From the NCBI GenBank assembly GCA_000092065.1, contig CP000593.1: a DNA stretch of 64,000 nt. One strand, given 5' to 3'. Both the position numbers and the translations under genes were made by a program. This document shows, piece after piece, positions 669-54,776 of this stretch. The notes below the pieces were generated by a model. The model was not told the origin of the DNA. It ran no database searches and saw only the letters and a program-made list of their open reading frames with translations. The stretch's first letter is position 1, and the number at the start of each line of letters is the position of its first letter. The DNA is from Ostreococcus lucimarinus. Lineage: Eukaryota.

Positions 669-2702
669 ATGTACCGCGCGTCACGCATCCCCGCGCGCGC
701 GCGTTGGCGCATCGCGTCGCTCGCGTCGCCGCGGCGCGCGCCGTCGCCGCGTCACCGCCGCTCGCTCGTCGTCGTTCGCGCCGCGCGCGCGACGCCCGCG
801 ACGTTCGATTACACCGCCCTCGTCGCGAGCGTGCGGGAGATAAACGCGCTGTCGACGCCGGTGAAGATCGACGCGTGCGCGCAGGTGGACGCGCACTCGA
901 TGACGCTGGACGCGCGCGCGGCGGATGGACGGCGGAGCGTGCGAGTGAGTTGGCACCCGGTGACCGCGCACGTCGCGATGAGCGCGCGCGGGGCCAAGGT
1001 GGAGAAGGGGATGAATCTTAGTTTTGGCGAGAGCGCGAACGCGCTGCTCAAGGGGAAGGTGCTGCTGGATGCGCGCGTGGGGACGGCGTGGGAACGCGCG
1101 TGTCGGTTGCGATTCGGCGATAGGCCGGGAGGTGAGGCAGAGTACGAGCTGTTGTGTGAGGTCATGGGGCGGTACAGCAACGCGTTCTTGCTTGATAGTA
1201 AAAATAATGATGAAGTTTTAGCGTGTGGGTATCAGGTTGGGGAGAAACAGACGAGTGTGCGGCGATTGGCGATCGGGTACGCGTACGAGCCGCCGCCCTC
1301 GGCGCCCGGGATCGATCCCACGACCGGGGTTGAAGGGGGCGTGGACGGATGGACCGCGGTGTTGCGCGACGTCGCACGCGGTCGCAGTGGTGATATGGGC
1401 GAAGCGCGTTTGGATGAGTGCATGGTGCGCGCGTTTCGAGGGGTGTCACCGGCTTTGGCCAAGGCGTTGATTCGCGGCGCGGGCGTCGCCGATGGCGAGC
1501 GCGTCGAAACCGCGAGTGCGAGCGATTGGGTCGCCGTGTACGATGAGTTCATGCGATGGATTGCGAGCGTTTCAAGTGATGCCGACAGTGCGGGTACGCT
1601 CGCAAACGCCACGTGGTGCGAAGAGTTCGGGCAGTTGTTATTGCACCCGTCGTCCGCGGGCGTCGTCTTGCCGCCCGCCGCCGACGATTTGAGCGTTGCC
1701 GGCGGGCCGATCGGCGCTCTTTTCGGCGCTGTGTACGGCGAAGCGGGCGAAACCGACGTGTTCGAGCGCGAACGCTCGCGCATTTTACAAGCCGTGCGCG
1801 CGCGTCTGAAAAAGTTGGCGAGCAAAGACGTTGGGTTCCGCAAGCAATTAGAGGCGGCGAGCGGGCACGAAGAAATTCAACTGCTCGCCGACGCGTTGAT
1901 GGCGTACAGTTACAACTATAAGCCTGGTTCGAGCGAGCTTGAGGGTCAAGACTTCACCACGGGCGAGACAGTGATGTTTAAAGTAGATCCCGAGAAAGGT
2001 CCTGTGGGCACCGCCGAGGCGCTGTACAAAAAGACGAGAAAGCTGCGTCGCACCGCCGACGCCGTCGAGCCGCTCATCGAACAAAATGCGAGCGAGATTG
2101 AGTATTTAGAGGGCGTCGAATTTAGTATTCTCGAAGTCAGCGAGTTCAAATCGCGCGACGATTTATTGTTCATCGAGGAAATTGGCGCCGAACTCGTGGA
2201 CGGTGGATTCTTAAAGCCCACGGGCAAGGGCGCCGACGCGAAGACGCGCGCGATGGCGGCGGCGAAGAAGGGCGGCGGCGCGAAGCCGAAAACCGGTAAG
2301 CAAGCGCGTAAGCAAGAGATGATGAACGCCATTCGCATCTATACCGCGCCGAGTGGAAAGGAGGTGTACTGCGGAAGAAATAGCCGCGGAAACGAAGCGG
2401 TTTCGCTTTTCTTCGGACAAGACCAAGACGTGTGGTTTCACGTTCGCGGCGCCCCGGGCGCGCACGTCATCCTTCGCCAACAACCAGGCGAAACCGCCTC
2501 AGACGACGACATCCAATTCGCCGCCAACGTCGCGAGCTTTCATTCGAAAGTGAGAACGGGCGGCAAAGTCAACGTTTCGTACACGTCTCCTAAGTACGTG
2601 AAAAAGCCCAAGGGCGCCAGGCTCGGCATGGTCACCATCGACCGCGAAGACGTCATCGTCGGACGACCGGACGACGTCGCGGACGTCTGCGACGGGCGAT
2701 GA
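669..2702 (+). CDS. NFACT-domain protein (FbpA/Rqc2/NEMF-like; NFACT-N, coiled coil, NFACT-R/DUF814), probably organelle-targeted
   Basis: N-terminal FDYTALVASVREIN...GRYSNAFLL fits the NFACT-N pattern. C-terminal YTAPSGKEVYCGRNSRGNEAVS...FHVRGAPGAHVIL...VSYTSPKYVKKPKGARLGMV fits DUF814/NFACT-R. The ORF opens at 522 with a GTG, the first ATG is at 669, and the N-terminus is R/S/A-rich like a transit peptide. Confidence 0.7.
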   Translation: MYRASRIPARARWRIASLASPRRAPSPRHRRSLVVVRAARATPATFDYTALVASVREINALSTPVKIDACAQVDAHSMTLDARAADGRRSVRVSWHPVTAHVAMSARGAKVEKGMNLSFGESANALLKGKVLLDARVGTAWERACRLRFGDRPGGEAEYELLCEVMGRYSNAFLLDSKNNDEVLACGYQVGEKQTSVRRLAIGYAYEPPPSAPGIDPTTGVEGGVDGWTAVLRDVARGRSGDMGEARLDECMVRAFRGVSPALAKALIRGAGVADGERVETASASDWVAVYDEFMRWIASVSSDADSAGTLANATWCEEFGQLLLHPSSAGVVLPPAADDLSVAGGPIGALFGAVYGEAGETDVFERERSRILQAVRARLKKLASKDVGFRKQLEAASGHEEIQLLADALMAYSYNYKPGSSELEGQDFTTGETVMFKVDPEKGPVGTAEALYKKTRKLRRTADAVEPLIEQNASEIEYLEGVEFSILEVSEFKSRDDLLFIEEIGAELVDGGFLKPTGKGADAKTRAMAAAKKGGGAKPKTGKQARKQEMMNAIRIYTAPSGKEVYCGRNSRGNEAVSLFFGQDQDVWFHVRGAPGAHVILRQQPGETASDDDIQFAANVASFHSKVRTGGKVNVSYTSPKYVKKPKGARLGMVTIDREDVIVGRPDDVADVCDGR

Positions 2703-2723
2703 ATCGCGCGCATCGCTCAAACT

Positions 2724-2728
2724 TGTAA
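2724..2728 (+). promoter_or_regulatory. TGTAA poly(A)-signal-like motif downstream of the NFACT gene
   Basis: A TGTAA pentamer lies ~25 nt after the stop at 2702. TGTAA is the green-algal poly(A) signal. Confidence 0.4.
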
Positions 2729-3085
2729 CATTCGCCCCCTCGTCCCGAGGACCCATAAAGTCATAAAGCGTCCATCGCGTCGTCGCGCGCACCGTCGCGT
2801 CTCGCCGCGCCCTTCGCCGCGCGCCCCGCGGGCTTCGCGCGTCGCGCGCGACGCCGACGCCGACGCCTCGCCTCCGACCGCGCGCGCGTCGACCGCGTCG
2901 ACCGCGGCGACCGCGCGTTTCGTCGCGCGGTCGCGTGACGTCACGCGCGAACCGTCGACGTCGACGATTCGTGTCGCGCGACCGACCGCTCGTATGCGTA
3001 AACAGTGACGCGCGAAAATGACAAAATTCGACGTCACCGTCGACGGCGCGCCGCATCGCGTCACTCTCGCACACGCACGCACGAC

Positions 3086-10633: not shown

Positions 10634-10796
10634 CTACGCACATCGATTTCAACATCGCCGTCAGTCGTTCGGTCAACAGAGTCAACGCCGCGCCGCGTTC
10701 GCGCGAAATCCAACAGATCACCGTCACCGCGCATCTCTCACGCGCCGCCGTGACGCGCGAAACCGCGATGTATCGACGAAACGATCGTACACGCAC
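10634..10796 (-). other. CCT6: Intron of CCT6 (163 nt, phase 1)
   Basis: The donor is GGAG|GTGCGTGT. An ACTGAC branch-like motif lies ~30 nt before the acceptor tgcgtAG. Splicing joins ...KMLVDGAGG to LKLTKDG..., exactly as in CCT-zeta orthologues. The summed exon lengths, 154 + 1451 = 1605 nt, are divisible by 3. Confidence 0.85.
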
Positions 10797-14181: not shown

Positions 14182-15585
14182 ATGTCTGAAGGCAAGGAAC
14201 ATCTTTCCATCGTGATCTGCGGTCACGTCGATTCCGGTAAGTCGACGACGACCGGTCGCTTGTTATTCGAGCTCGGGGGTATCCCGGAGCGCGAACTCGA
14301 AAAGCTTCGCGCCGAAGCCGATGCGCTCGGTAAGTCTTCTTTCGCGTTCGCGTTCTACATGGATCGCCAAAAGGAAGAGCGTGAGCGTGGTGTGACGATT
14401 TCTTGCACGACCAAGGAATTCTTCACGGACAAGTGGCACTACACCATCATCGACGCCCCGGGTCACCGCGATTTCATCAAGAACATGATTTCCGGCGCGG
14501 CGCAAGCCGATGTGGCGCTTCTCATGGTGCCGGCGGACGGTAACTTCACGGTCGCCATCCAAAAGGGTAACCACAAGGCTGGTGAAGTCCAAGGCCAAAC
14601 GCGCCAGCACGCGCGTCTTCTCAACTTGCTCGGCGTCAAGCAGCTCATTTGCGGCATCAACAAGATGGATTGCGACATGGCTGGCTACAAGCAAGAGCGT
14701 TACGAAGAAATTCGCAACGAAATGAAGAACATGTTGATCAAGGTCGGCTGGAAGAAGGATTACGTCGAGAAGAGCGTCCCGGTCCTCCCGATCTCTGGCT
14801 GGAACGGCGACAACTTGTTGTCCAAGTCCGCGAAGATGCCGTGGTGGAACGGCGTCGACGTCGAAGACTACATGGGCGGCGGCAAGAAGTTCCACATCGA
14901 CTGCCTCCTCAACGTCCTCAACGACATGGTCGACAAGCCGGACCGCAACACGGAAGCCGCCATGCGCCTTCCGATTTCCGGTGTCTACAAGATCAAGGGT
15001 GTCGGTGATGTCCTCGCCGGTCGCGTCGAGCAAGGTCTCGTCAAGCCGGGTGAAGACGTCGTCTTCCTCCCGACCCACACCTCCTCCAACCCGTGCGGTG
15101 GTAAGGTGTTCACCGTCGAAATGCACCACAAGCGCGTCGAAGCCGCCGCGCCGGGTGACAACGTCGGTATGAACATCAAGGGTCTCGACAAGCTCAACAT
15201 GCCGCGCACCGGTGACGTGATGATCTACAAGAAGGACACCTCCCTCGCCCCGTGCAAGGAGTTCACCGCGCAAATCCAAACCTTGGACATTCCGGGTGAA
15301 CTCAAGGCGGGCTACAGCCCCATCGGTTTCGTCCGATGCGGCCGCTCCGCGTGCAAGTTGACCGCGCTCAACTTCAAGGTTGGCAAGGAAACCGGCGGTA
15401 AGAAGCTCGAGTCCCCGATGTCGTTGAAGTCCAACGAAGTCGCCGAGTGCGTCTTCGAGCCGGTCCACCCGCTCGTCGTCGACTCCTTCAAGAAGTGCGA
15501 AGGTCTTTCCCGCATCGCTTTCTTGGACGGTAACACCGCCGTCATGTTGGGTAAGATCACCAAGGTTGAGTACAAGGCCATCTAA
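14182..15585 (+). CDS. EFL: Elongation factor-like GTPase EFL (EF-1alpha paralogue)
   Basis: MSEGKEHLSIVICGHVDSGKSTTTGRLLFELGG... contains the G1-G4 motifs. The sequence diverges from canonical EF-1alpha in the EFL-typical way. The ATG has an aaacgcacaATG context. Confidence 0.9.
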   Translation: MSEGKEHLSIVICGHVDSGKSTTTGRLLFELGGIPERELEKLRAEADALGKSSFAFAFYMDRQKEERERGVTISCTTKEFFTDKWHYTIIDAPGHRDFIKNMISGAAQADVALLMVPADGNFTVAIQKGNHKAGEVQGQTRQHARLLNLLGVKQLICGINKMDCDMAGYKQERYEEIRNEMKNMLIKVGWKKDYVEKSVPVLPISGWNGDNLLSKSAKMPWWNGVDVEDYMGGGKKFHIDCLLNVLNDMVDKPDRNTEAAMRLPISGVYKIKGVGDVLAGRVEQGLVKPGEDVVFLPTHTSSNPCGGKVFTVEMHHKRVEAAAPGDNVGMNIKGLDKLNMPRTGDVMIYKKDTSLAPCKEFTAQIQTLDIPGELKAGYSPIGFVRCGRSACKLTALNFKVGKETGGKKLESPMSLKSNEVAECVFEPVHPLVVDSFKKCEGLSRIAFLDGNTAVMLGKITKVEYKAI

Positions 15586-15766: not shown

Positions 15767-17537
15767 CTACTTGGAAATCTTTGCACACGCGCGTTCGAGC
15801 CACGTTTTAGTCTCCCCCGACACTCGCGGGGAAATTTGTTGCCAAACTTTTTCGTGATACGCGTTCACCCACGCGATTTCTTTTTCACTCATAATGCTCA
15901 AGTCCATGAGTTTCGTTTGAATCGGGATCAACGTCAAGACGTCAAAGCATAAAAATCCAGTGTCTCCGAAGTTGTGCGCAGTCTTCGCCTCCTTCACTTG
16001 CAGAAGCGTCTCGATGCGGATACCGAACGCACCGTCTTCGTAATACCCCGGCTCGTTGCTCAAGATCATTCCTGGCATAAGGGGCGTCATGTTTCCAAAA
16101 CGCGGAGAGATTCCTTGCGGACCTTCGTGCACGTTGAGCGCCGCGCCGACGCCGTGGCCGGTGCCGTGACGGTAATCCAAGCCGTTGGCCCACAGGTGCG
16201 ATCGCGCAAAGGCGTCGAGAACGAAACCTTTCGTGCCGACAGGGAAAACCATTTGGTCGAGTGCGATGTGACCTTGGAGCACGCGCGTGTAGCACTCCTT
16301 TTGATGAGCGGTGGGCGTTCCGAAGTGCACCGTTCGAGTGACATCCGTCGTGCCACACGCGTACTGGCCGCCGCTGTCGCAGAGTAATAAGCTGTCCTTA
16401 CCGATAGCCCTCGCGCTCTTTTTCGAAGCACGGTAGTGCACCACGGCGCCATGAGGACCTTCACCCGCGATCGTCGGGAACGATTCTTCGAAGAAACCGT
16501 TTTGCTTGGCTCGGCACGCCAAGACCCTCTCGCCAGCTTCGTACTCGTCAATGGCGCGCCCCTCGGCGACGTCTCGCTCGATCGCGCACCAGAATTCAGC
16601 CATCGCAGCGCCATCCATGAGGTGGGCTTCGACCATACCGGCCATCTCGGCCTCATTCTTCACCGCCTTTGCGATCGGGACCGGACACGTGCCCTCCTTG
16701 ATGGCGGACGGCGCGCTCTCCGTCTTCACCTTTTTCGCATCCTTGGGCGCTTCGGCGGCTCCGGCTTCAGCCTGTTCGAGCATGGCGATGGAGACCTTAT
16801 CGACGTCCATCCAGAGTCGCTCACCGCGCTGTGCCGCGGCATACACGTCTTTGGCCATGTCTTCGTACGGCTTGATCGTCACGTTTGCCTCGGCGAGATG
16901 CGCCACGACTTCAGGCGTCGCCTTGTCCGTGTCGACGTAAAACGAAGCGTCGTTTTCACCCACCAAGACGTAAGACAACGTCACCGGATTACACGGTGCA
17001 TCACCGCCTCGAACATTGCATAGCCACATGACGTCATCCAACGAGCTCACGACGAGCTTCTGCGCGTCGTTTTCCTTCATTTTTTCTCGAAGGTTTTCCA
17101 ATTTTTCCGCCACGCTCTTCCCCGCGTACTCCATCGGGTGCACTCTGAGCGGCGTCTTCGGGAACGGTGGACGATCGCTCCAAACCAAATCTACCAAGTT
17201 CTCTTCGACGCTCATCAACTCGATCCCGCACGCGCTCAACGCTTCTCTCAAACCTCGCGCCTCGCTCACCGAGTGCACGTTTGGATCGATGCCCACCTTG
17301 GCTCCGGTAAACGCCAGTCCCGCCTCCTCCGCGCACAACCACTTCTTCACGTCCGGCACATCCTTCACCCCACTTCGCATCAGAGTCCAGTCCTCGCTCA
17401 GCTCGTCTTCAGCCTGCACGAAATACCGTCCATCCGTCCACAACAACGCCGCCGCGTCCGTCACCACCACCGTCCCCGCCGACCCCGTAAAATCGCTCAA
17501 CCATCGTCGTCGCTCGAAGCACGCCGCCACGTACTCA
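15767..17537 (-). CDS. Xaa-Pro aminopeptidase (aminopeptidase P, M24B), exon 2
   Basis: SEYVAACFERRRWLSDFTGSAGTVVVTD...HGTGHGVGAALNVHEGPQGI...NEPGYYEDGAFGIRIETLL aligns with APP1/XPNPEP1 from residue ~40 onward. The ORF track begins it at an in-frame GTG, and no in-frame ATG lies upstream before a stop. Confidence 0.85.
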
Positions 17538-17641
17538 CTGCGTTCCCCACAAAAACACGCCCTCGCCCGTTCGTCAGTCTTTCCCGTCGCGCGCGTCGTC
17601 GTTCCTCGTTTCGTTCGTTCGCCTTCGCTTCGCCGACGCGC
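17538..17641 (-). other. Intron of the aminopeptidase P gene (104 nt, phase 2, apparent GC-AG)
   Basis: Exon 1 ends ...CCG CAC TTT AG| and is followed by gcgcgtcgg. Exon 2 begins after ...ggggaacgcag|T GAG TAC. ACTGAC lies ~45 nt before the acceptor. Splicing gives PSQDPHF-S-EYVAAC, aligning with human PSGDAHQSEYIAPC. No GT donor is available in the required phase. Confidence 0.55.
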
Positions 17642-17751
17642 CTAAAGTGCGGATCCTGCGACGGCACGACGACCGCTCGCACCCCTCGCTTCGCCATCGC
17701 CTCTCGCACCGCCGCGAGCTTCGACGCGTTCGAGCGTTCGCCCGTCGTCAT
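17642..17751 (-). CDS. Xaa-Pro aminopeptidase, exon 1
   Basis: MTTGERSNASKLAAVREAMAKRGVRAVVVPSQDPHF matches the APP N-terminus, compare human ...LRQLRQAM...AYIIPSGDAHQ. An alternative upstream ATG at 17880 would add an organellar-like presequence. Confidence 0.6.
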
Positions 17752-18103
17752 GCTCGCTCGCTCGGCGATCGCGGCGTCGCGCGCGCGGGTCGTCGTTTTG
17801 AGTTTTCGAGCGGCGAGGCGACGCGATGACGTCGGCGTTCTCGCGGCGACGCGCGCGGCGACGAGACGCGCGGCGCGCATGCACGATTCGAACGCGCGCG
17901 TCGGTCGCGTCGGTCGCGTCGGTCCGTCCGTCGAGCCGGTGGCGCGCGCGGGAGTGACGACCGAGGCGCGCGCGGTCGACGCGCGTCGGTTGAATCGAAC
18001 GGCTGGTTGGTTCACGATTTCAAGCTTTACGACCGGGCGACGCGCCGCGAGACGATTCGGAACGCCGACGCCGTTCGAGGGCGACGACGACGACGCGGAC
18101 CGA

Positions 18104-20176: not shown

Positions 20177-20306
20177 CTGCGCGCGCGTTCGGTCGTCGCG
20201 TCGTCTCGCGTCGTCAGTCGCGCGTTCGCGTCGTCCGTCGTCGAGCTGACGTTCAAACATTCAATCTCTCATCGCGCGCGCCGTCGCGCGCCGGCCCTCG
20301 ACGCAC
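20177..20306 (-). other. MLH1: Intron of MLH1 (130 nt, phase 0)
   Basis: The donor is GAG|GTGCGTCGAG. ACTGAC lies ~35 nt upstream of the acceptor gcgcgCAG|GTGATC. The apparent ORF start MFERQLDD... lies inside this intron. Confidence 0.75.
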
Positions 20307-33961: not shown

Positions 33962-34535
33962 GCGAAACCGCCATGAACTTTCGACGCGCGACGTGACCTT
34001 TGGGCGCCACGCGCGCCCGGAGACGGCGCGCGCGCGTCGGCACGACGCGACGCTCGAGGACGCGGGAGACGCGCGATGTCGCCGCCGACGCCGCGCGACG
34101 TCGATCGCCCGTCCCCGCGCGCGCCCGCGCCGAGACGCGCGACGCGAGGCGACGACGACGCGGGAGACGACGGCGTCGCCGTCACGCGCGCGAATGCGAA
34201 AAATGAAAATGAAGCGAATGCGAATCGAACGGCGCGCGCGTCGACGACGCGCGAGGACGCGCGCGAGGCGAACGGGAACGATGGGAAAACCGCTCGAGAG
34301 CCGACGAGGGTGCGCGCGACGCGCGAACGGGCGATGCGATGGCGACGGGAGGGAAACATTCGGGAGATGGGCGATCTTTCAAACGGCTGGTGATTTTGAA
34401 AGATTTTTTAAACGCGAGGACGCGAAGACGCGAGGGCGATCGGGGCGCGGTGAAGGCGCGCGAGAGACTGACGAAGGCGCGAAACGTGGATTTTTAACGT
34501 CGCAGAGCGCGTCGTACGAGTCGAGCGAACGACCG

Positions 34536-36601: not shown

Positions 36602-38011
36602 CTACTGCGCCTCGGCTATGCCGCGAACGATGCCGTTCGCGTGCGCCAAGCCGGTGACGATGACGCACGTGACGACTTCGTCGTCGTCTTCATCAATCCG
36701 CGGCGCTTGCGACGCCTCGACGCTCGCGCTCGCGAGTAAATACCCAGCCGGATGTGTCTCTAACGCGTGCACGTCGCACTCGTCCATTCCTTCGATCCAA
36801 ACCTCCAATTTCCGAGCCTTTGTCGTCGGGCGCTCGCCCTCCACCACGCGCGTCACTCGTGCGCGGCGCATGGAATCCTCAACGGCCACGGTTCCAGTAC
36901 GTCGAGCCGCATCGCCTAGAATCTCAAAGCAAGAACTACTCACGTAATGTCTCGCGCGCCCGAGTAAACACCCGAGCTCGGCGCCCACGAGGGATCCGCC
37001 ATTCGCTTCCGCGAGCGAGTCCATGAGCGCTAGCCAACGCGGCTCCCACAAGTTCAGCCTTCTCGTTTCGCCCCGTTTCAGCGGACGTTTCAGCGTGAAG
37101 CACGGCACCGCGCCAGCATCACTCGGGGTGAATGTTTGCATGCTCTTCTTCGTCGCCGACGGATCGGTGGAAAACCCAAATCGCACGCGGCGTACCCGCC
37201 CTCGAGCGATGCCCGAGCACACGTCGACGGCGTTCAACGCGTTGGCGCACAACACCTCGTCTCTTTCCATCCACAGCGTCTCCACGAGCGGGCAAAATAA
37301 TAAAAGCGCAAGGAACACGCCGACTGCGTCCACGAGACCGTTCTCCGCTCCGTTCGGCATCGCCAAGCTCGCCAACGTCGCCGCGACGAACGCCGCCGCC
37401 GGTCCCGCGAGCGGCGTCAGATTTCTCGGCTCGTCCATGAGAGCTCTCGCCACGTCCGCCGCGGCGAGCGCGCCATCGCTCGAAACACCCACGGATCCAC
37501 CATCCCACGCGTTTTTCACGTACGCCAACACCGTTTTCCACCGTTCGATCGCGAAAGGGTTCGTCCCGAACGCGCGAGCCGCCAACGCCTCGCCTATACC
37601 TCTCGCCCGCACGTCCCCGTACACCGTCAGCGCGTCCTCGCGCTCTGATTCGATGATACCGGTCAACAAATCGCTCCCGTATTCGGAATCGTCGATCACG
37701 CGCGCGCGTTCGACGAAGCTCGCGACGAGGGCGTCGGCGCGCTCTTGGTCGAGCTCGAGCACCACAGCCTGCGGTTTCGCGCGTCGTATGACCCGTCGAA
37801 CGTCTGCCGCCGCCGCCGCGCTCGCGTGGGAGGTACCGACGACGTAGAATTCGCACTGCGTCGCGCGGGAGGGTCGAGAGACGTCGAGTTTGAGGCTTTT
37901 TGAGACGAATCCCGTGCCGGGAGGGAGCCAGGTCGGGACGGCGGCGCCCGACGACGACGACGACGACGACGGGACGTCCGGGACGACGACGCGCACGCAC
38001 GCGGCGCGCAT
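36602..38011 (-). CDS. TraB-family protein with C-terminal Lon-N (substrate-binding)-like domain
   Basis: EFYVVGTSHASAAAAADVRRVIRRAKPQAVVLELDQER is the TraB/PrgY-type N-terminal motif. The C-terminal ...FTLKRPLKRGETRRLNLWEPRWLALMD resembles the Lon N-domain core (LPLFPL...L.IFEPRY). Confidence 0.7.
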   Translation of the reverse strand: MRAACVRVVVPDVPSSSSSSSGAAVPTWLPPGTGFVSKSLKLDVSRPSRATQCEFYVVGTSHASAAAAADVRRVIRRAKPQAVVLELDQERADALVASFVERARVIDDSEYGSDLLTGIIESEREDALTVYGDVRARGIGEALAARAFGTNPFAIERWKTVLAYVKNAWDGGSVGVSSDGALAAADVARALMDEPRNLTPLAGPAAAFVAATLASLAMPNGAENGLVDAVGVFLALLLFCPLVETLWMERDEVLCANALNAVDVCSGIARGRVRRVRFGFSTDPSATKKSMQTFTPSDAGAVPCFTLKRPLKRGETRRLNLWEPRWLALMDSLAEANGGSLVGAELGCLLGRARHYVSSSCFEILGDAARRTGTVAVEDSMRRARVTRVVEGERPTTKARKLEVWIEGMDECDVHALETHPAGYLLASASVEASQAPRIDEDDDEVVTCVIVTGLAHANGIVRGIAEAQ

Positions 38012-38176
38012 GGCGATCGACGCCGACGTCGGGCGCCTCGCGCGCGTCGCGACGTGAAGTTTGGGTCGGTTCTCTGTGTGTGACGTAGCAATTTGTCTAT
38101 TCTACCCGACGGGAGGGACGACGACGACGACGCGGGCGGCCTACCTCGCTTCACCGCGGCCGCGATCGCGCGGCTT

Positions 38177-41100
38177 TCACTTTTCCATCCTTGCCGCTCG
38201 TTTCTTTTTAGCCTTCTCTTCCTCTCGAGCGAGTTTCAACGACCTGGACGCGACGAAGCCTTCAAACGTCAAATCGCCCGTCTTCGCGATCGCCTCCTCG
38301 TCCGAATCGATGTCGTCGTCGGTGTCGTCTTGCGCGAGGATTTGCCTGCCATCGCGCCACTTTAACGTGGACTTTCGGTTGTCGATGCCGATGATCTTGG
38401 CCGTGACGTCGCGGCGAGTCTCGTCTTCTTCTTCTGACGAATATTCGGCCGTTTGCAAACGGTCGCCGGTGTCGGTGTCAAACAGCTCTCGACTTTGATC
38501 GTGGACGTTGCGAGCGACGAAAACATCGCTCCAAAATTGACGCCACACCGCATCGCCGGAGAGCGTACACGTGCGCTTATTGATGATGATCATCGCTTGC
38601 AAGATGAAACCGTATCGCTCGTCGATGGTGACGTTAATCTTCGGGGGCGTTCCTTTCCACTTTTTGACGTCGATGGGCTCGGTCCAGCCGTATTTCACCA
38701 CGCGACGGTTGTTCTCCTCCTTAAAAGCCGTCGACTCCACGTTGCGCGTCGCGATGAATCGCCGCCATCGCGACAAATGAATGGGTTTATTGAGTGTGAG
38801 CTTTTTCGTCTCCACGCTGCAATGCATGTAGGCCAAGTAGCGCATCAAATAAACAATTCCACCGCCCAACGCCGACCACGCGAGCATGTTCAAGATGAAC
38901 CAAACCGCGGGAACATTCACTATGTACGGCTGCACCGCTTCGACGGCCCATCGAATCTCGGTGAACGAAAGGTATTGCCCCGTGAATCGATCGAGAATGT
39001 CAAACGCGAGCGTCCCCGACAAAATCACTTGCGTCACCTCGAGCGTGGTGCTGTTGCGCGCCTGCGCTCGGAAAGCATCCTCTAAGTTTTTCGTCGTCCC
39101 TTCTATCGCCTCGTTGATGCGGAGCTTTCTTCGTGAGCCGATGACGGCGTTCATTTCTCGCAGAGACTCGAGATCGTTGACGCACGCCGCGATGACTTTT
39201 TCCAAGTCAACGGCGCGTCTTTGCAAGCGTTTCCACGACGGTTCCAACTGAAACAAGTCGTACAACACTTGCGACGCGCCGTCGCTCATATCCGCGCTCA
39301 ACTTTTCACGAGACGTGTCGACGTTTTCGAGCGACTCGAGCACGAACTGCTGAGTGGCGCTCAAGATCGTCACCGTCGTCGTGTGATCGGCGAGGCGCGA
39401 ACGAATGCGCGTTACGTTCGTCGGATCGATCTGATAGGTTTCAATCAACGCTCGCGTCTTCTTCAACTCGTCGTTCAGCGCGAAACAACTGCTGAAGACA
39501 CTTTTGATGAACAACGAGCGAGCTTGGAACGCTGAATATGTCGCGAGAAGCTTGTGATGACGTTCGGTGCGCGGACCAAAGACGACGACACCGCGTGAAC
39601 CAAAGACGATGACTTCTTGTTCGTTCAGGTCGTACGCGTAAAACGTCGCGCCGATGACTTGCTTGAGCTCGTTTTCGTTATCTTCACCATCCATGTACGC
39701 CGCGGCTTTCAGTTTTGGCGTCGCGCGCTCGGCGATGATGCACGTAAACTTGTCGCGATTGTCCGGCTCGCCCTTGTATGTGATGTTCAACATGGAGCGC
39801 TGACGCTCGGAAAATAAATTTCCCACCAGCGAGCTCGTGTCTTCGTGGACGTCGGAAAGTAAGCGCGCGAGTAAATCGACGCTGATATCGTTTCGAATTC
39901 GATCGGCGATGCCGTTGACGACGATGCCGTAAGTGATGGCGCCGTTTTCCCGAAAGTTGATGCCGAAAACCTCGATTTGCTGCTGCACCAAGTTACTCTT
40001 GGGCGCCCCGGTGGCGAGCAAGTCTGCCTCGACGTTTACGAATCGCGTTTCGTCGACGTCGAGGACTTTTAGCTCGGTTTTATTGTCGGCGTTGATCCCG
40101 ACCACCATGTTGAATTCGTCCTGCGTCGCGCTCGCTTCCGCGGTGAACATACCGCCCGCGACGCGGTCTCCCGTGCCGAGTTTTCTACAGAAAGAAACCA
40201 TTTCGTTCGATCCCATCGGCACGTATTCGGTGACGATGATTTTCACCGAGTCGAGCAAGATACTTTCACTCAGGCGCGGGTCGCGAATATCGCGACTACT
40301 TTGAACGGCGCCGCCGAGCACGCGTTTTGCCTTTTTGTGCCCGTTCAACGCGTTCGGTGTGAACGCATCGGAGCTCAGCATGTGCGGAGGGATGTACGGA
40401 GACGAGACGTACGGCACGTCTTCGACGTCCGTGATGGTGGAGCGGATGCGGACCCCGATCGAGGGGACGGTGAGGAAAAAATCCGAGGACTCGCGGTCGT
40501 ACCGCACCTCGAGGAGGTGACCAGCTTCGTGCACCAACGAATCTACCGACTGGCGCATCGCGCTCGTGAACCGTCCCGAGGCCGTCATCCTCTGCAAGAA
40601 TTCGCTCCCCTTCTTGGAAATCTTCAACAACGTCGAGTGATCGTACGTCTCGCTCGTCACCTTGAGCGCCGTGATGAAACCAAGCTCACGCAAATCGTCT
40701 AAATCGTCTCGTCCCTCTTCCGAGACGTTCAAATACCTCGGACACGCTCCAAATATCTTTTCTGATTTTGGCGCGTAATCGTAATCGAACACCGCGTTTC
40801 GCACGATGCCCTCGTACACGAGCACCAGGAGCGGCAGCTCGCGAATCCAGGGAGAACGTTTGTTGTTGTTGTTGTTGGAAACCGCAGACTTCGACTTCGA
40901 CTGTTTCTGAGACGCGTCGGTGTACAAACTCAGCATGTACAACAATTTCAACGCCTCGGGCGATTCCTCCATCTCCCGCTCGCGCGACTCGACTTCCCGC
41001 CGACGCCGAGTCGTGGACGAGGCGGAAGTGCTCGAGTCGGCGTCTGAAGCGCTCGAGTCCCGGGCGTCCCGGGCGTAGTGCGAAGAATCATCGTCATCAT

Positions 41101-41236
41101 CGTCATCGTCGACGCGAATCGTTGCGTCCGAATCCGAATCGTAGCCCTGCGGCGCCCCGCATTCCGCGCACGTCGCCGCGCCGCCGCGCACGACGGCCCG
41201 GCACGTCGCGCACCGCGTCGAATCCATCGTATCCAC
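38177..41236 (-). CDS. Large conserved-looking hypothetical protein (1019 aa) with N-terminal Cys4 zinc ribbon, acidic tracts and C-terminal hydrophobic segment
   Basis: It is a single long ORF with normal codon composition. CATCRAVVRGGAATCAECGAP is a CxxC...CxxC motif. D/S/E-rich linkers follow, and there is a predicted TM segment PAVWFILNMLAWSALGGGIVYLM. I could not assign it to a named family. Confidence 0.6.
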   Translation of the reverse strand: MDTMDSTRCATCRAVVRGGAATCAECGAPQGYDSDSDATIRVDDDDDDDDSSHYARDARDSSASDADSSTSASSTTRRRREVESREREMEESPEALKLLYMLSLYTDASQKQSKSKSAVSNNNNNKRSPWIRELPLLVLVYEGIVRNAVFDYDYAPKSEKIFGACPRYLNVSEEGRDDLDDLRELGFITALKVTSETYDHSTLLKISKKGSEFLQRMTASGRFTSAMRQSVDSLVHEAGHLLEVRYDRESSDFFLTVPSIGVRIRSTITDVEDVPYVSSPYIPPHMLSSDAFTPNALNGHKKAKRVLGGAVQSSRDIRDPRLSESILLDSVKIIVTEYVPMGSNEMVSFCRKLGTGDRVAGGMFTAEASATQDEFNMVVGINADNKTELKVLDVDETRFVNVEADLLATGAPKSNLVQQQIEVFGINFRENGAITYGIVVNGIADRIRNDISVDLLARLLSDVHEDTSSLVGNLFSERQRSMLNITYKGEPDNRDKFTCIIAERATPKLKAAAYMDGEDNENELKQVIGATFYAYDLNEQEVIVFGSRGVVVFGPRTERHHKLLATYSAFQARSLFIKSVFSSCFALNDELKKTRALIETYQIDPTNVTRIRSRLADHTTTVTILSATQQFVLESLENVDTSREKLSADMSDGASQVLYDLFQLEPSWKRLQRRAVDLEKVIAACVNDLESLREMNAVIGSRRKLRINEAIEGTTKNLEDAFRAQARNSTTLEVTQVILSGTLAFDILDRFTGQYLSFTEIRWAVEAVQPYIVNVPAVWFILNMLAWSALGGGIVYLMRYLAYMHCSVETKKLTLNKPIHLSRWRRFIATRNVESTAFKEENNRRVVKYGWTEPIDVKKWKGTPPKINVTIDERYGFILQAMIIINKRTCTLSGDAVWRQFWSDVFVARNVHDQSRELFDTDTGDRLQTAEYSSEEEDETRRDVTAKIIGIDNRKSTLKWRDGRQILAQDDTDDDIDSDEEAIAKTGDLTFEGFVASRSLKLAREEEKAKKKRAARMEK

Positions 41237-41463
41237 CGATGGATTCGACCGCGGAGTGACGACGAACGAACGAACGCGCGAAAACCACCGACGTCCTCGC
41301 CCGAGCCCTCAACCTGTAACATTCGCGATCGCGGATCGACGGCGTCAAGCCGCGAAGATCTGTCGCAAACCCACCATCGAGCGACGTATAATACCAATTA
41401 TTCGTCCACCTCGCCGAGTTAAGCCTCGAAATAAAGAGCATGGGCAGTCGAATGTCCGCGATG

Positions 41464-41577
41464 TTGTGCGTATGCATAAACAGTCTTCCTTAACTCAGCT
41501 GGTAGAGTGTCAGACTGTTAGGAAAAAGTCTCCGTCGAATATGACGGCTGCTCCGATAGAGATCTGGAAGCCGCGGG
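41464..41577 (+). tRNA. tRNA-Asn(GUU)-like sequence with a 41-nt insertion (intron-like) between positions 37 and 38; possibly a pseudo-tRNA or SINE head
   Basis: The cloverleaf can be drawn by hand. Acceptor TCTTCCT pairs with AGGAAGA and the discriminator is G. D-arm ACTC-AGCTGGTA-GAGT has G18G19 and an A-box-like TAACTCAGCTGG. The anticodon stem is TCAGA/TCTGG and the loop CTGTTA|A carries anticodon GTT. The T-arm GCGGG-ATCGAAA-CCCGC is B-box-like. T5 lies ~25 nt downstream. Unusual features are U1-A72 and A54. Confidence 0.4.
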
Positions 41578-41700
41578 ATCGAAACCCGCAGGAAGAGATG
41601 TGTCGACATCAAACCTTACTTTTTCCCATACCCGATTGTCCGTGATGGAAAAGCGACACGACAACACTGTGACTTTCGTCGTTTCGGGGTGACGGATAGT
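41464..41700 (+). mobile_element. tRNA-derived SINE-like repeat, copy 1 (full length with tRNA-like head)
   Basis: A ~222-nt body from gctggtagag to tatcgct is near-identical to 47434..47655. It ends in an A-rich tract (actttaaaaaatttatcgct) and is followed by T9 and a GC inverted repeat. Confidence 0.6.
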
Positions 41701-41840
41701 ACTTTAAAAAATTTATCGCTATGAGTAATAAAAATAAACTTTTTTTTTGAGTTGGGGCACCCCAACATGATAAAACCGCACATCGACGTTGATGTACCGC
41801 ATGTAAGATTTCTCCAGAACCAATCGTGTGAGTGAAGTGG

Positions 41841-42338
41841 TCAAGCCAAGCCGCGTAACTCATCTACCGTAAATTGATACTTGTCGAGACTGCGCTTCGA
41901 AGGCAGCGTGCCGCGCGCTCGGGCATTCTTGAGGCACGTCTTGCGCAGTATTCCTTTTGCGTGCTGCTTGTAATAATTGAGTTGTCTGTAGTTACCATCG
42001 CCGCCGTCCCGCTTCGGCGTATATTGAGCTCTGCTGTAGGCTGGACTCTCGTCCACGTTCTCGCGGCACGCGTGTTTCTGGCTGCGTCCAGCAGCTCGGG
42101 AGTTGAATAAGCCGTCACGCTTCTCTCTCATGTAGGCACCTTTACGTTGATGGAGCTCTCCAGCTGGAATGTCCTTTTCGAGAACTCTCACGTCCGCGTC
42201 GCCAAACGTGAAGATTGGATGTCGTGCGTATTTATGCGAGGCAAGGCGCGCTCTGAGCGAACCCGTCGTCGATCCGATGTACGTTTTGTTACATTTCGCA
42301 TTATCGCTAAACATTTCGTACACGCATCCCGACGGCAT
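41841..42338 (-). CDS. Free-standing GIY-YIG endonuclease-domain protein (homing-endonuclease/viral-like), located in a low-GC island
   Basis: MPSGCVYEMFSDNAKCNKTYIGSTTGSLRARLASHKY matches GIY-(x10)-YIG-ST..L..R...H. A downstream ...LFNS... supplies the conserved Asn region. The C-terminal 70 aa are basic. The ORF GC (~52%) is well below its neighbours (~68%). There is no RING, so it is not SLX1. Confidence 0.6.
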   Translation of the reverse strand: MPSGCVYEMFSDNAKCNKTYIGSTTGSLRARLASHKYARHPIFTFGDADVRVLEKDIPAGELHQRKGAYMREKRDGLFNSRAAGRSQKHACRENVDESPAYSRAQYTPKRDGGDGNYRQLNYYKQHAKGILRKTCLKNARARGTLPSKRSLDKYQFTVDELRGLA

Positions 42339-42521
42339 TTGTCCTGGTTACCTATCTATCCCTAAGAAAATATTGTTGCCAAAAGTGCCTCCTCCTGCGG
42401 TTTGCAGTCACATCCGAGAGACCATAGGTACGCGTATCGCTGCGTGGGCTGCAAGGTCCGGAATGTAGATACCGAACCGCCTGATTTCACACCTGGACGT
42501 TCGTGATCCGTCGAGACCTGA

Positions 42522-42710
42522 CGAAATGACGAACTTGTTTTGTCGTCCACAAATTCGTCAACCCGTCGTTCGGTGACACTTTGTGTGTACCAATGATGAA
42601 AATGACGAAATGTTAAAATATTTTAATGTTTATTTTTATTTTAGATCTATGACAAGCAACAGTGTGGACCTTTATGAAAACAGTTCGTCATTCGTCATTT
42701 CGTCAGGATC
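42522..42710. repeat. Inverted repeat pair (ctgacgaaatgacgaac ... gttcgtcat(tcgtcat)ttcgtcag) flanking an extremely AT-rich ~150-bp spacer, with a third direct copy (gaaaatgacgaaatg) inside
   Basis: The ~17-bp arms are reverse complements of each other, and the spacer is >75% A+T. Confidence 0.5.
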
Positions 42711-42772
42711 CAAACCATGGTCTTTTTGGTGTCTCGTTGAGTCTTCATATTGCAAATGTACGAATTACAAAA

Positions 42773-43069
42773 TTAGTATGAGCACCAGACGACCGCCGGC
42801 GCGAGCTCCGTCTCCCCTGTGTACCCATTGTCCTTCAGCCACTCGAAGCACCCGTCGCGGTGAATTTCCCAATAGACGCCCTTCTCGTCTCTACCTTGCC
42901 TCAGGTGGTCCTCTTCCATTGGGACCCTGTGGCCCTTTTCCTTCTTGAAGAAGTCCTTGAGCTTATTGCCGACCTTCGTCGCGCTATCTTGACCGCGCGC
43001 AGCCGCTGGCAACCACGTCTGGTATTCGATGAAGATGTCACTGTGTGCATAAAAATGACTTGCGCTCAC
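42773..43069 (-). CDS. Small ORF (98 aa) of unknown function downstream of ZNG1; it may be UTR rather than a gene
   Basis: The ORF opens with GTG and has no ATG until codon 51. Its composition is not GC-skewed (...GVYWEIHRDGCFEWLKDNGYTGE...). A TGTAA on this strand follows directly after its stop. Confidence 0.25.
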   Translation of the reverse strand: MSASHFYAHSDIFIEYQTWLPAAARGQDSATKVGNKLKDFFKKEKGHRVPMEEDHLRQGRDEKGVYWEIHRDGCFEWLKDNGYTGETELAPAVVWCSY

Positions 43070-43169
43070 ATCGGTGTGGGCTCACTATAAAGGACAAGCT
43101 TACATGTCGGAAGAGTTGCCCGAGTCCACATCTCCACCCTGTTCCGCTTCAGTGTCACCTAGAAAGACA

Positions 43170-44810
43170 TCAGACTAAGCCGTCGTTTTGAGAGGGCGCC
43201 GACTTTGCCTTTGGTTTTGCCTTCGACTTTGAAGTGGGTTGCGGCCTGATCTCCTCTTCGATCTCCTCGTCGTCGACCAAATCTTCGTCGATTTCTTCGT
43301 CGTCTTCGTCATCGACTTCGTCGTCTTCGTCTTCGTCGTCTTCGTCTAGAAAGACATCACCCATGACTGCTCTCCAGCCATCAGAACCCATTTCGAATTC
43401 TTCGTCGGTCAAGAGGCAAGAGTCCAACGTTGATTGAATTTCATCGTATTTAAGATCCTTGCCAATGAACACCAGTTCTTGTCGGCGATCACCATAAGGC
43501 CCCTCCCAGTCTTTACGAAGTTCTTGCTTTATCCCCTGTGAGCCGACCCAAGCATTTTTATTCAGCGCGGTCCATCGGCTTGATCCTTCGAGAGAGTAAA
43601 TATTACCAGCCTGACTGAAAACAATTATCAAGTCGTGGGCATCACTGAGCCACGTTACACCCTTCGAACGTAGCAGCACACCAATTTCACCTTCCCTTTT
43701 ACGGCGCTTGAGTTTCATCGCTTCTTGTCGCGCTCGAATATCTTTCACTGCACTCCAGTCTACACTTGGTGTCTCTTCATCTTTTTCTTCATCACGGTCA
43801 TCGGCCTCGAGGGAGCTGAAGAAGCGCTCGACAAATGAGCCTAAAAACCGTTTGGGATGAAAAGGTCTTCTGGCTCGGTAAATGAAAGACGTAATACCGA
43901 ACCGACTATCGTGACGTGTTTGGGAAGAACTTGGTGCAAGCGTGACCTCGCTTAAGGCTGTTTCTCTCATGCGAGCTCGCTTACAGCATGGAGACTCACC
44001 TTTGTCCCTAGCGCCGGCGCAGCATGACTTCACAGATGTTGCTTCTATCTCTTGTTCCCATGTTATGAAACCAGCAAAGTCATTCTCTTTGTAAAGTTTT
44101 GTATTGACGATTCGCGTAACGTCGATCGCGCCGTTCACAGCTTCAAGAATATCAGCACGTGAATTGAGAAGTTGTATCTGCGCTTTAATCTCGGCGAGTT
44201 GTTCGTCATCGACAGTGTCGACCTTGTTCAATACGACGACATTCGCGTACTCTATCTGTTCAGCCAACAATTGAGAGTAAGACTGCCTGTTCACAGCTGA
44301 CGCCCTGAAAGAATCAATCATGTCGAGAAAGTCACCTGCAGCGATGACCGTCACGCACGTATCCAGCCGCGCCAGTGTGCTCAAATGTTCATGCTCATCA
44401 ACGTGCGCAGCTTCATGATCGTGATCGTCCTCACAATTTGCGAAGAGTTTCGCAATTTCCGCCGGTTCCGACACTCCTGATGCCTCTACGATCATGTAGT
44501 CAAAATTGCCACTCTTGGCCATGTCCCCGATTTGTTTTACAAAGTCTCCGCTCAACGAACAGCACACGCATCCGTTCTGCATGGCAACCACCTCGTCGCT
44601 CTGCAGCAAAGCGGAATCATCGATTAATTTTTTGTCGATGTTCAACTCCGCGACGTCGTTCACGACGACGGCACACCGAAACTTTCCGTTCGCGTCTCGC
44701 TTAGCTTCGAGCACGCGTTTCAGAGTTGTCGTCTTCCCAGCGCCGAGGAACCCGCACAGCGTTGTCACCGGCAATCGATTATGATTGGCGATTGCGGCGG
44801 GTGTGGACAT
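43170..44810 (-). CDS. ZNG1: COG0523/CobW-family GTPase (ZNG1-like zinc metallochaperone) with acidic C-terminal tail
   Basis: PVTTLCGFLGAGKTTTLKRVL is the P-loop. The CxCC metal-binding motif is present in ...MQNGCVCCSLSGD.... A CobW_C domain and a D/E-rich tail follow. The ATG is at 44810. Confidence 0.85.
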   Translation of the reverse strand: MSTPAAIANHNRLPVTTLCGFLGAGKTTTLKRVLEAKRDANGKFRCAVVVNDVAELNIDKKLIDDSALLQSDEVVAMQNGCVCCSLSGDFVKQIGDMAKSGNFDYMIVEASGVSEPAEIAKLFANCEDDHDHEAAHVDEHEHLSTLARLDTCVTVIAAGDFLDMIDSFRASAVNRQSYSQLLAEQIEYANVVVLNKVDTVDDEQLAEIKAQIQLLNSRADILEAVNGAIDVTRIVNTKLYKENDFAGFITWEQEIEATSVKSCCAGARDKGESPCCKRARMRETALSEVTLAPSSSQTRHDSRFGITSFIYRARRPFHPKRFLGSFVERFFSSLEADDRDEEKDEETPSVDWSAVKDIRARQEAMKLKRRKREGEIGVLLRSKGVTWLSDAHDLIIVFSQAGNIYSLEGSSRWTALNKNAWVGSQGIKQELRKDWEGPYGDRRQELVFIGKDLKYDEIQSTLDSCLLTDEEFEMGSDGWRAVMGDVFLDEDDEDEDDEVDDEDDEEIDEDLVDDEEIEEEIRPQPTSKSKAKPKAKSAPSQNDGLV

Positions 44811-44867
44811 GATGTACGGCGATCGACGTCTCCGCGCGCGAACGAGCCGAAGAGGCGTCGCGAAGTG

Positions 44868-45142
44868 CGGCGATGCGCGCGCGTCGTGCACGTGTCGACG
44901 ATTCGCGTCGTGCACGTGTCGAGGATCGTCGTACGCGACGCCCCGCGAAGCCCATCACGGATCGCGTCGCGACGCGCGTCGTAAACATGTCGACACGCAT
45001 GTCGACATATTTACCCACGCGCGTGTACGCATTGAACCCCGTGATGCATCTATATACGAAAAACGTCTCGACGCACATGTCGACATATTTCGACATATCC
45101 AAGTACCACCGAGATGTGTCGACACTGCGGCGGATGTCGACA
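44868..45142. promoter_or_regulatory. Cluster of GTCGAC-centred palindromes (5x [A]TGTCGACA[T], plus a 2x 23-nt tandem cgtcgtgcacgtgtcga(c/g)g) in the ZNG1/ZIP bidirectional promoter
   Basis: ATGTCGACA occurs at ~44987, 45000, 45078, 45117 (as TGTGTCGACA) and 45135. Two copies extend to CATGTCGACATATTT. The tandem repeat with CACGTGTCGAC lies at ~44875-44925. Confidence 0.55.
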
Positions 45143-45368
45143 TTTTGTCGTTCGCGAGTCGTGACTTATAAACGACCGCCCTCCATCGCGCCGGTTCGGT
45201 TCGTATGCCGCTTTAGTTTGTGCGCAGCCGCACTTACCGACGCCGGCGAAGACGACGACGACGACGGAAACGATGACGAACGAAAACACGAAGAACACGA
45301 AGACGACGATGCCGCCGCGCGAACGCGCACGCGGTGCGAGGACGGTCGAGCGACGACGAGGGCGAACG

Positions 45369-46802
45369 ATGCGCTGCGCGAGCGCGCTCGGTGGTGGCAT
45401 CGCGATCGTCGCGAGCGCGCTCGCGCAGCGCGGCGCGCACGCGTCCGGCGCGCACGCATTCGAATGGGCTGGAATCTTTGAGACGCCAGAGAATGAATAC
45501 GTGTGGCAGGCGCAAAAGGTGGCCGATAAGTACGCCGCCGATACCATGAAAATGGTCATCTACGACGAAATCGCCGCCGGACACGACGAGCTCGAAGCCC
45601 GCGAGGATAGCGGTGATACCGCAATCGGGGGAGCTTGTACGACGGCTAAGATACGAGATAGTGTTTTGACACCTGATAGTGGGTGTGTCAACCTTGAATT
45701 TGACAACACCTGGCACACGACGCCGTTTAAGATTAATACGACTGGCATCGACGCGATCTCAATCTTCGCTGAGCACGTTCCCACCGAGTTCGAGCGCGAC
45801 GCGCACTATCTCAAGGACCTCCACGGAGATGACGTGGTGCCAAAAGCTTCACTTCCCGAAGCATCCACCGTGAGCGAATCGAAATCAAAACCGTGGGCCA
45901 ACGCCATTGGGGCGGCAATTATCGTCAATATCGTCACACTTTCTGGTGTGGTCTTTCTCATCCCGAGTATCGCTAAGAAGCAGAAAGCGTACCCTGAAAC
46001 TGTGAGTTGCACAATTAACTCGTTTGCCGCCGGCGCACTTCTTTCGGCTGCGTTTTATCTGATGTTCTACGAAGCCACGCATTTAATCAAACCTGCTGGC
46101 TCGGATGAGGCAGAGCAGACCGCATGGTGGGCTTCCGCTTCTATCTTCGGCTTTCTCATGGCCTACTTCATCGACTTTGGTATCTCTGTCGTGTTCCCAA
46201 CTCTTGGAAATACAGCGAAGACAACCGATGCGGAACTTGCAGTCAAAGGCGCTCAAGATGACTGTGATACTTGTACTTGTAACTCACACAAGTATCGCGT
46301 TCGAAGTGGTATCATTCTTGGAGATTTCATGCACAACCTAGTGGATGGTATTTTCATTGGCTTCGGCTTTCTGAACTGCGACAGTACCATGGGATGGTCG
46401 ATCACCGCCGCGACCGTCTATCACGAAATCGCTCAAGAGCTTGCTGACTACTTGGTGCTCGTAGACCCCTTCCAGGGCGATCTCGCGCCGTTGCCGACGC
46501 TGACTTTAAACTTCGTTTCCGGCTTGAGTGTCATTCTTGGCGTCCTCATTAGTGTTGGATCGGGAAATAACAACGACTTCTGGCATGGACTGCTGCTCGC
46601 CTTCGGTGCTGGAGTCTATCTGCAAATCGCCGCCGCAGAGTGCATGCCCCGAGTATCAGTGAGCGCCACTTCACCTCGTCTTCGCGCGACGAGCATTCTC
46701 ACCTTCATCGTCGGCGTTGTTGCCATCAGTCTCGTGCTCCTCAACCACAAGCATTGCACAGGCGGTGGCGGTGGCGGAGACTCACACGCACACGCGCACT
46801 AA
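45369..46802 (+). CDS. ZIP (Zrt/Irt-like) family metal transporter
   Basis: MRCASALGGGIAIVASALA is a signal peptide. Multiple TM segments follow. HNLVDGIFIGFGF and YHEIAQELADYLVL are variants of the ZIP TM-IV and TM-V motifs HNFxDGLAIG and HEIPHELGDF. The C-terminus has a His-rich stretch HKHCTGGGGGGDSHAHAH. Confidence 0.75.
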   Translation: MRCASALGGGIAIVASALAQRGAHASGAHAFEWAGIFETPENEYVWQAQKVADKYAADTMKMVIYDEIAAGHDELEAREDSGDTAIGGACTTAKIRDSVLTPDSGCVNLEFDNTWHTTPFKINTTGIDAISIFAEHVPTEFERDAHYLKDLHGDDVVPKASLPEASTVSESKSKPWANAIGAAIIVNIVTLSGVVFLIPSIAKKQKAYPETVSCTINSFAAGALLSAAFYLMFYEATHLIKPAGSDEAEQTAWWASASIFGFLMAYFIDFGISVVFPTLGNTAKTTDAELAVKGAQDDCDTCTCNSHKYRVRSGIILGDFMHNLVDGIFIGFGFLNCDSTMGWSITAATVYHEIAQELADYLVLVDPFQGDLAPLPTLTLNFVSGLSVILGVLISVGSGNNNDFWHGLLLAFGAGVYLQIAAAECMPRVSVSATSPRLRATSILTFIVGVVAISLVLLNHKHCTGGGGGGDSHAHAH

Positions 46803-46906
46803 TGAGAGCGGTAAAAAAATGTCAATTACTATCAAATCAAGTTGTGGCAAACACACCCACGGCCACTGACGGAGATCTATTTTTCAAGCTAGAGGATCAT
46901 ATAAAT

Positions 46907-54501: not shown

Positions 54502-54776
54502 GTGCGACGCGACGCGACGCGAGCGCGACGCGACGCGCGACGGGAGACGACGGGAGACGACGGGCGGCGACGCGACGAGCGGACGGCGAACGCGAACGCG
54601 GCGACGCGGCGGCGGCAGGGTTTGCGCGATCGCGACGGCGACGCGGCGCGCGCGACGGCGGCGGACGCGCGAGGACGCGGGCGAAGAGTAACGCATCGCG
54701 AACGCGTCGCGGACGCGAAGGGCCGACGCGCCGCGGTCGAGCGCGAGGACTGACGGAGCGCGGGACGACGACGCAG
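54502..54776 (+). other. EIF3E: Intron of eIF3e (275 nt, phase 0)
   Basis: The donor is GTGCGA. CTGAC lies ~25 nt before the acceptor acgCAG|ATC. Read-through gives only R-rich sequence and a stop at 54753. Confidence 0.7.

Follow-up and report, generated by a model that had tools for sequence, protein, structure and literature searches.

Evidence for a GC-AG intron near the 5' end of the aminopeptidase P gene of Ostreococcus lucimarinus and for a misplaced intron in its deposited model

The nuclear gene of Ostreococcus lucimarinus that encodes an Xaa-Pro aminopeptidase P (M24B) raises the question of where the N-terminus of the protein comes from, and at exactly which bases the coding sequence is interrupted. 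The gene lies on the minus strand of a 64,000-nt stretch of DNA (GC 0.62), which was analysed as a whole and is referred to here as the window; all positions are those of the window. The long open reading frame (ORF) of the gene (15767..17530, minus strand) opens on a GTG and starts with ...AACFERRRW (...AACFERRRWLSDFTGS). An upstream ORF, in a different frame, reads ...MTTGERSNASKLAAVREAMAKRGVRAVVVPSQDPHF and continues into an arginine-rich sequence without apparent meaning. The first-pass annotation of this DNA had proposed that the N-terminus is supplied by the upstream ORF through a GC-AG intron, with ...TTT AG spliced to T GAG TAC.... Both ORFs were confirmed, and the proposed junction turned out to be the same as the one carried by an independent contig, which is described below.

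Gene structure and splice signals

The gene contains a single, 5'-proximal intron. Exon 1 (17642..17880, minus strand) ends with ...CAC TTT AG in phase 2, within a Ser codon, and exon 2 (15767..17537, minus strand) runs from T GAG TAC GTG GCG... to the stop. Between them lies the 104-nt phase 2 segment (17538..17641, minus strand; GCGCGTCGGCGAAG...AAGACTGACGAA...GGGGAACGCAG) read here as a GC-AG intron. When the 104 nt are taken out, the join of both exons gives an open product of 626 aa from the ATG at 17751, or of 669 aa from the ATG at 17880. The spliced product carries all four Pfam domains Creatinase_N, Creatinase_N_2, Peptidase_M24 and Peptidase_M24_C, with E-values from 1e-20 to 7e-50; the remainder of Creatinase_N and the other three domains are encoded by exon 2. 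Human XPNPEP1 (PDB 3ctz) was matched by the N-terminal 206 aa of the spliced product with E = 6e-34. Since the unspliced sequence shifts the reading frame, exon 1 is unable to read through into exon 2.

The end of exon 1, ...TTT AG, had been placed correctly by the first-pass annotation, but its start, set at the ATG at 17751 (MTTGERS...) as in the RefSeq model, is probably the ATG at 17880 (MRAARLVAAR...). The latter is in frame, opens the longest ORF on the spliced contig and adds 43 aa (MRAARLVAARVAARTPTSSRRLAARKLKTTTRARDAAIAERAS; window 17752-17880, minus strand) that are R/A/S/T-rich and presequence-like. Comparable R/A/S/T-rich N-terminal extensions are found in orthologs of 668-704 aa (e.g. 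P0007, MLARLAARSL...), and for the aminopeptidase P of O. tauri a long (688 aa) and a short (627 aa) model both exist. The spliced contig shows zero indels against the window in 17880..17642, and its three 1-nt indels all lie upstream of 17880. The contig of a sister lineage (L012) was not used to judge the coding status of 17880..17752 because of its obvious frameshift errors. The extension from the ATG at 17880 could serve organellar or dual targeting.

The GCGCGT start, the ACTGAC and the CAG acceptor that had been pointed out earlier are all present on the minus strand. The 5' splice site AG/GCGCGTC (17635..17643, minus strand) has a C at +2 and matches GTGCGTG at +1 and at +3 to +6. The branch-site motif GACTGACG, which contains ACTGAC (17572..17579, minus strand), starts 41 nt upstream of the 3' splice junction. 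The 3' splice site CAG (17538..17540, minus strand; intron end AACGCAG) is the second AG past the branch motif; the GAG nearer the branch site is skipped, as it is in the MLH1 intron. It has been described that the EST-confirmed introns of O. lucimarinus outside chromosome 2 have the atypical 5' consensus GTGCGTG, and that 87% of them contain ACTGAC and 66.5% contain GACTGACG (Irimia and Roy 2008, PMC2483917). The signals of the aminopeptidase P intron are those of this published consensus, save for the C at +2 (and a C, not G, at +7).

Three other introns of the window were verified through alignments of the N-termini obtained after splicing with homologs in the PDB or with conserved sequence. 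These are the introns of CCT-zeta (10796..10634, minus strand; donor GTGCGTG, acceptor TAG), MLH1 (20306..20177, minus strand; donor GTGCGTC, acceptor CAG) and eIF3e (54502..54776, plus strand; donor GTGCGAC, acceptor CAG). All three are 5'-proximal GT-AG introns with GACTGACG, and the distance from the branch motif to the 3' splice site is ~32 nt in CCT-zeta, ~42 nt in MLH1 and ~29 nt in eIF3e, compared with 41 nt here. Positions +3 to +5 (G, C, G) of the aminopeptidase P donor are the same as in all four local GT donors. The motif GACTGACG was found in 7 copies in the 64-kb window, a mild enrichment over the 4.25 expected, and 4 of the copies fall within homology-verified introns. The donor octamer GCGCGTCG is frequent in the CpG-rich O. 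lucimarinus genome and carries little information by itself. For these reasons the junction, rather than the motifs, bears the weight of the argument. Further copies of GACTGACG lie at 34466, within a possible intron (34310..34505, donor GTGCGCG), at 14136, within a possible 5'UTR intron of the EF-like gene that ends at 14165, and at 31029, where it probably occurs by chance.

On the basis of these signals, the pre-mRNA would be cut after ...CACUUUAG (window 17642), the branch adenosine would lie within GACUGACG (17579..17572), and a 104-nt lariat with a terminal CAG (17538) would be removed. Excision would rebuild the Ser codon AG/U and, with it, the sequence ...DPHF-S-EYVAAC... of the N-terminal creatinase-like domain. 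Assuming the presumed roles of U1 and U2, the C at +2 would mean the loss of one U1 base pair. This loss may be offset by the rest of the 5' site, which follows the consensus (G+1, GCGU at +3 to +6, AG at -2/-1), together with the perfect extended branch motif. In GC-AG introns in general, the mismatch at +2 is compensated by an otherwise consensus 5' splice site.

Several other features of the window were also recorded. The EF-1-alpha-like protein (14182..15585, plus strand) is 100% identical to XP_001420985.1 of O. lucimarinus CCE9901 and has three GenBank accessions in this species; its gene is multi-copy, an identical protein being encoded twice on the same 406-531 kb JGI contigs (L018-L022), at ~153 kb and ~376 kb. 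An island of low GC at ~38000-48000 (0.50-0.55, against 0.62-0.70 elsewhere in the window) may be of foreign origin or unusual in some other way. Within it lie an ORF with a GIY-YIG-like motif (41841..42338, minus strand), a COG0523/CobW-like GTPase ORF (43170..44915, minus strand) and a ZIP-like metal transporter ORF (45273..46802, plus strand), the remaining 41.3-47.7 kb stretch being poor in long ORFs. An Rfam tRNA match at 41484-41597 (plus strand; 49 bits) spans 114 nt against a model of 71 positions, which implies an intron-containing tRNA gene; ARAGORN, run with bacterial settings, reported no tRNA in the window.

The exon junction in a contig and in homologs

The Logan contig SRR28369218_66516 (L023, 3039 nt) was compared with the window by blastn and was found to lack exactly 17641..17538. 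Its positions 1-1221 correspond to window 18865-17642 (99.5% identity) and its positions 1220-3039, which include exon 2, to window 17539-15720 (99.9% identity). The join reads CACTTTAG/TGAGTACG and encodes ...DPHFSEYVAAC.... Besides the 104-nt gap, four SNPs and three 1-nt indels set the contig apart from the window, and therefore it comes from another natural strain. It also reaches through the 224-nt intergenic spacer into the 3' part of MLH1, the next gene upstream. In an exact look-up in a collection of 15 billion proteins, the 669-aa product of the GC-AG join, read from the ATG at 17880, was present (P0300), and it was encoded on this contig alone.

The dinucleotide AG is present at both ends of the gap, so that both blocks overlap by 2 nt and the cut may be placed in three ways, as GC..AG, GG..CA or AG..GC, without any change in the product. 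As GG..CA and AG..GC fit no known intron class, we infer that the cut lies at GC/AG.

The homologs lead to the same join. The residues S-E-Y were found at this place, uninterrupted, in 13/13 close orthologs (P0002-P0013 and P0028), in the form ...VPS(Q/G)DPHFSEYV(A/P)(A/T)C..., and the DPHFSEYVAAC-type segment is invariant among the Ostreococcus and Micromonas orthologs. They are common to human XPNPEP1 (3ctz: PSGDAHQSEYIAPC) and to C. elegans APP-1 (4s2r), and the resemblance of HF-S-EYVAAC to the human enzyme noticed in the first-pass annotation is borne out in these three shared residues. All frame-preserving GT-AG, GC-AG and AT-AC pairs around the site, ~150 in number, were enumerated. The donor at 17641 with the acceptor at 17538 was the only pair that gives HFSEYVAAC as in the orthologs. 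The earlier statement that the GC-AG join alone restores the ortholog sequence thus holds, but one GT-AG pair of similar layout is available at a distance of 4 nt (17637..17534).

The spliced junction gave 0 matches in the JGI metagenome contigs, both in a scan for the exact 26-mer and with a gapped pattern that allowed any junction within 30 nt, which suggests that no spliced copy is present among them. A peptide search with the spliced N-terminal 150 aa returned no spliced fragment from the same species. Taken as a whole, the junction in the contig, the homologs and the splice signals indicate, with a probability of about 0.93, that the 104-nt segment belongs to the GC-AG minor class of U2-type spliceosomal introns.

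Other readings of the locus

The GT-AG alternative is the deposited annotation itself (XP_001421129.1 / ABO99422.1 / UniRef100_A4S6Q1, "predicted protein [O. lucimarinus CCE9901]"): the GT-AG translation of 626 aa from the ATG at 17751 matched XP_001421129.1 exactly in the look-up. In this model the intron is shifted 4 nt downstream at both ends (17534..17637, minus strand; CGC/GTCGGCG...CAGTGAG/TAC), and the protein reads ...DPHF-RR-YVAAC..., with the register-specific peptide HFRRYVAACFER. It has canonical terminal dinucleotides, the identical length of 104 nt and a preserved frame. Thus the case that had been named beforehand as the one that would overturn the GC donor, a nearby GT donor with another reading of the N-terminus, exists in the databases, but the contig, the homologs and the splice signals all contradict it. 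The RefSeq register predicts TTTAGGCGC/TACGTG, whereas the contig reads CACTTTAG/TGAGTAC. It replaces two residues (S-E) that are invariant from alga to human, and a 669-aa product with RR had no exact match in the 15-billion-protein collection, in which the SE version is present. Its donor GTCGGCG mismatches at +3/+4, where the published consensus and each of the four local GT donors have G and C, and its acceptor GAG has a disfavoured G at -3. The 2007 annotation is nearly devoid of GC-AG introns, which suggests that the gene predictor forced a GT-AG pair. The RefSeq register is accordingly considered very improbable and is rejected.

The weight given to the contig depends on its nature, since it could also be DNA from an allele without the intron; the 104 nt would then be a presence/absence polymorphism, through recent insertion or precise loss, that may still segregate in natural populations. 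The contig covers two genes and the intergenic spacer, as genomic DNA would. Against this, the intron is found in all nine JGI contigs over the site and also in L001 and L012, and the 669-aa product was found on a single contig. Since the intron is present in every other contig over the site, a transcript assembly is favoured a priori, and we infer that L023 is RNA-derived. The two neighbouring genes lie on the same strand only 224 nt apart, and transcript assemblies of very compact genomes routinely fuse such adjacent genes. We therefore assign the intron-less allele as small a chance as the RefSeq register. Even if the contig were intron-less DNA, its deletion is in the GC-AG register and not in that of RefSeq, and an intron lost precisely at these bases would have had the same boundaries. 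Moreover, the intron-bearing gene is intact across lineages ~6% apart, and therefore it must be spliced even in that case.

It was also considered that no splicing takes place, the protein starting inside the long ORF (GTG at 17530 or a later ATG) and the upstream ORF being fortuitous. Truncated products of 577, 566 and 537 aa are indeed given by prokaryote-style gene callers on metagenome contigs. Such a protein would be devoid of ~36 conserved Creatinase_N residues that are found in every ortholog; exon 1 encodes exactly those missing residues and evolves under constraint, and the joined form is seen in the contig. This reading is hardly credible, even less so than the two preceding ones.

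Two other intron classes were examined. U12-type introns are characterised by the 5' splice site RTATCCTT and the branch site TCCTTRAC, which the donor GCGCGTCG and the branch motif GACTGACG do not fit. The introns of chromosome 2 of Ostreococcus, a low-GC outlier, are 40-65 nt long, with a weak branch signal and a GTRNGT donor (Irimia and Roy 2008, PMC2483917). This small-intron class was ruled out by the length of 104 nt, the perfect GACTGACG and the local GC of 0.62.

As a consequence of the preferred GC-AG register, the model XP_001421129.1 / UniProt A4S6Q1 is corrected: its intron is 4 nt off, which places two wrong residues at the invariant S-E, and it is probably also devoid of the 43-aa presequence.

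Origin of the intron and comparison with known systems

The intron sequence was compared among lineages. Across the intron, nine JGI metagenome contigs show no difference from the window. The contigs L001 and L012 belong to a sister lineage that is ~6% divergent, and both keep the GC, the ACTGAC and the CAG. Of these, L012 (ENA ERZ10646569 contig_24536) is a long-read contig of ~94% nucleotide identity, collinear over 20 kb with window 7399-27710, in whose assembly frameshift errors split genes; L001 shows the same lineage in the Logan run ERR9769281. Against the sister lineage 12/104 nt of the intron differ, and L001 is in addition 3 nt shorter; a further variant (P0128) has a poly-T run shortened by 1 nt, so that length variants of 101 and 103 nt are present. 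In exon 1 (17751 to 17642) only 3/110 nt differ from L012, two of the three changes being synonymous, and in the first 300 nt of exon 2 the sister lineage differs by 5-7 nt, which puts the difference in the flanking exons at 2-3%. The interior of the intron thus diverges in the manner of non-coding sequence, whereas its splice signals are kept. The presence of the same GC in the nine JGI contigs and in two divergent lineages shows that it is not a sequencing or assembly error.

The site is intronless in O. tauri, O. mediterraneus and a further Ostreococcus lineage, whose genomic contigs read CAC TTT AGC GAG TAC and are syntenic with the window (MLH1 - aminopeptidase P - EF-like). The Micromonas orthologs are uninterrupted at the site as well, and it is intronless in all other Ostreococcus and Micromonas orthologs examined. 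Identity to the orthologs was 76-78% for clusters that include O. tauri XP_003082710.2 and an O. mediterraneus MMETSP transcript, and 60-64% for Micromonas. In a neighbour-joining tree the lineage of the window was nested among six intron-less Ostreococcus lineages, with six intron-less Micromonas as the sister group. A single gain is favoured by parsimony, since the alternative would require at least four losses. We consider it reasonably probable that the intron is a recent acquisition of the O. lucimarinus clade, later than the separation of this clade from the other Ostreococcus lineages but older than the ~6% divergence of L001 and L012, at a place no more than 2 nt from an ancient green-plant intron position. 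The O. lucimarinus genome is otherwise thought to lose introns, and the locus would represent a candidate case of intron gain, adjoining an ancient intron position, in a genome that ranks among the most compact of free-living eukaryotes.

The closeness to the ancient site may be a coincidence, with a ~5% chance for a gene with ~20 introns, or it may reflect the re-use of a proto-splice site. An ancestral intron kept only here, which would have slid by 2 nt, is the least likely origin.

The source of the presumably gained sequence was searched for within the window. No second copy of the intron was detected by blastn in the 64-kb window, where only low-complexity CG-rich matches were obtained. 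When it was aligned with the three other introns, its similarity to the MLH1 intron reached z = 3.2, below all three pairs that do not involve the aminopeptidase P intron. With no copy and no excess similarity, no sign of an origin from an introner or another repeat was seen within this one 64-kb window. A tandem duplication of exon sequence was discarded by inspection, as the intron ends are unlike the flanking exons.

Like the introner elements of Micromonas and Aureococcus, the intron is lineage-specific in a Mamiellophyceae genome and has a GC donor. Unlike these elements, which are repeated and transposon-derived, it has no second copy or repeat family in the 64-kb window.

The aminopeptidase P genes of Coccomyxa subellipsoidea (intron in L029, 201-400) and Selaginella moellendorffii (intron in L030, 500-640) carry an intron in the same motif, directly before S-E-Y/F. 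This ancient green-plant intron differs in being a phase 0, GT-AG intron located before the Ser codon, 2 nt upstream of the phase 2 site of O. lucimarinus.

With the introns of O. lucimarinus outside chromosome 2 (PMC2483917) the aminopeptidase P intron shares GACTGACG, the agreement with GTGCGTG at +1 and +3 to +6, a length in the range of ~100-190 nt, the 5'-proximal position and a host gene with a single intron. It differs from them in having C for T at +2 and C for G at +7.

The GC donor had been regarded by the first-pass annotation as remarkable in such a compact genome. This view could not be maintained, because the relatives are rich in GC-AG introns and the same minor class is present in high-GC picoalgae. 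The share of GC-AG introns amounts to 22.2% in M. pusilla (CCMP1545), 2.7% in Micromonas RCC299, 7.7% in Chlorella NC64A and 39.6% in Aureococcus (Iwata and Gotoh 2011). Major non-canonical introns (GC-AG/AT-AC) account for 173/2044 in O. tauri, in contrast to 7/2156 in the 2007 annotation of O. lucimarinus (Pucker and Brockington 2018). The v2 annotation of O. tauri was guided by RNA-seq, and 89% of its introns were validated. Unlike that of O. tauri, the annotation of O. lucimarinus has few such introns, and the intron of the aminopeptidase P gene was entered in it as GT-AG. The low count in O. lucimarinus is most simply explained as an annotation artefact, of which this gene is a concrete example. 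The difference between 7/2156 and 173/2044 indicates a systematic bias in the 2007 annotation and suggests that other O. lucimarinus gene models may carry shifts of a few nt. The knowledge of splicing itself is unchanged: this is an ordinary U2-type GC-AG intron of the kind standard in O. lucimarinus, which is new only as a correction of the public model.
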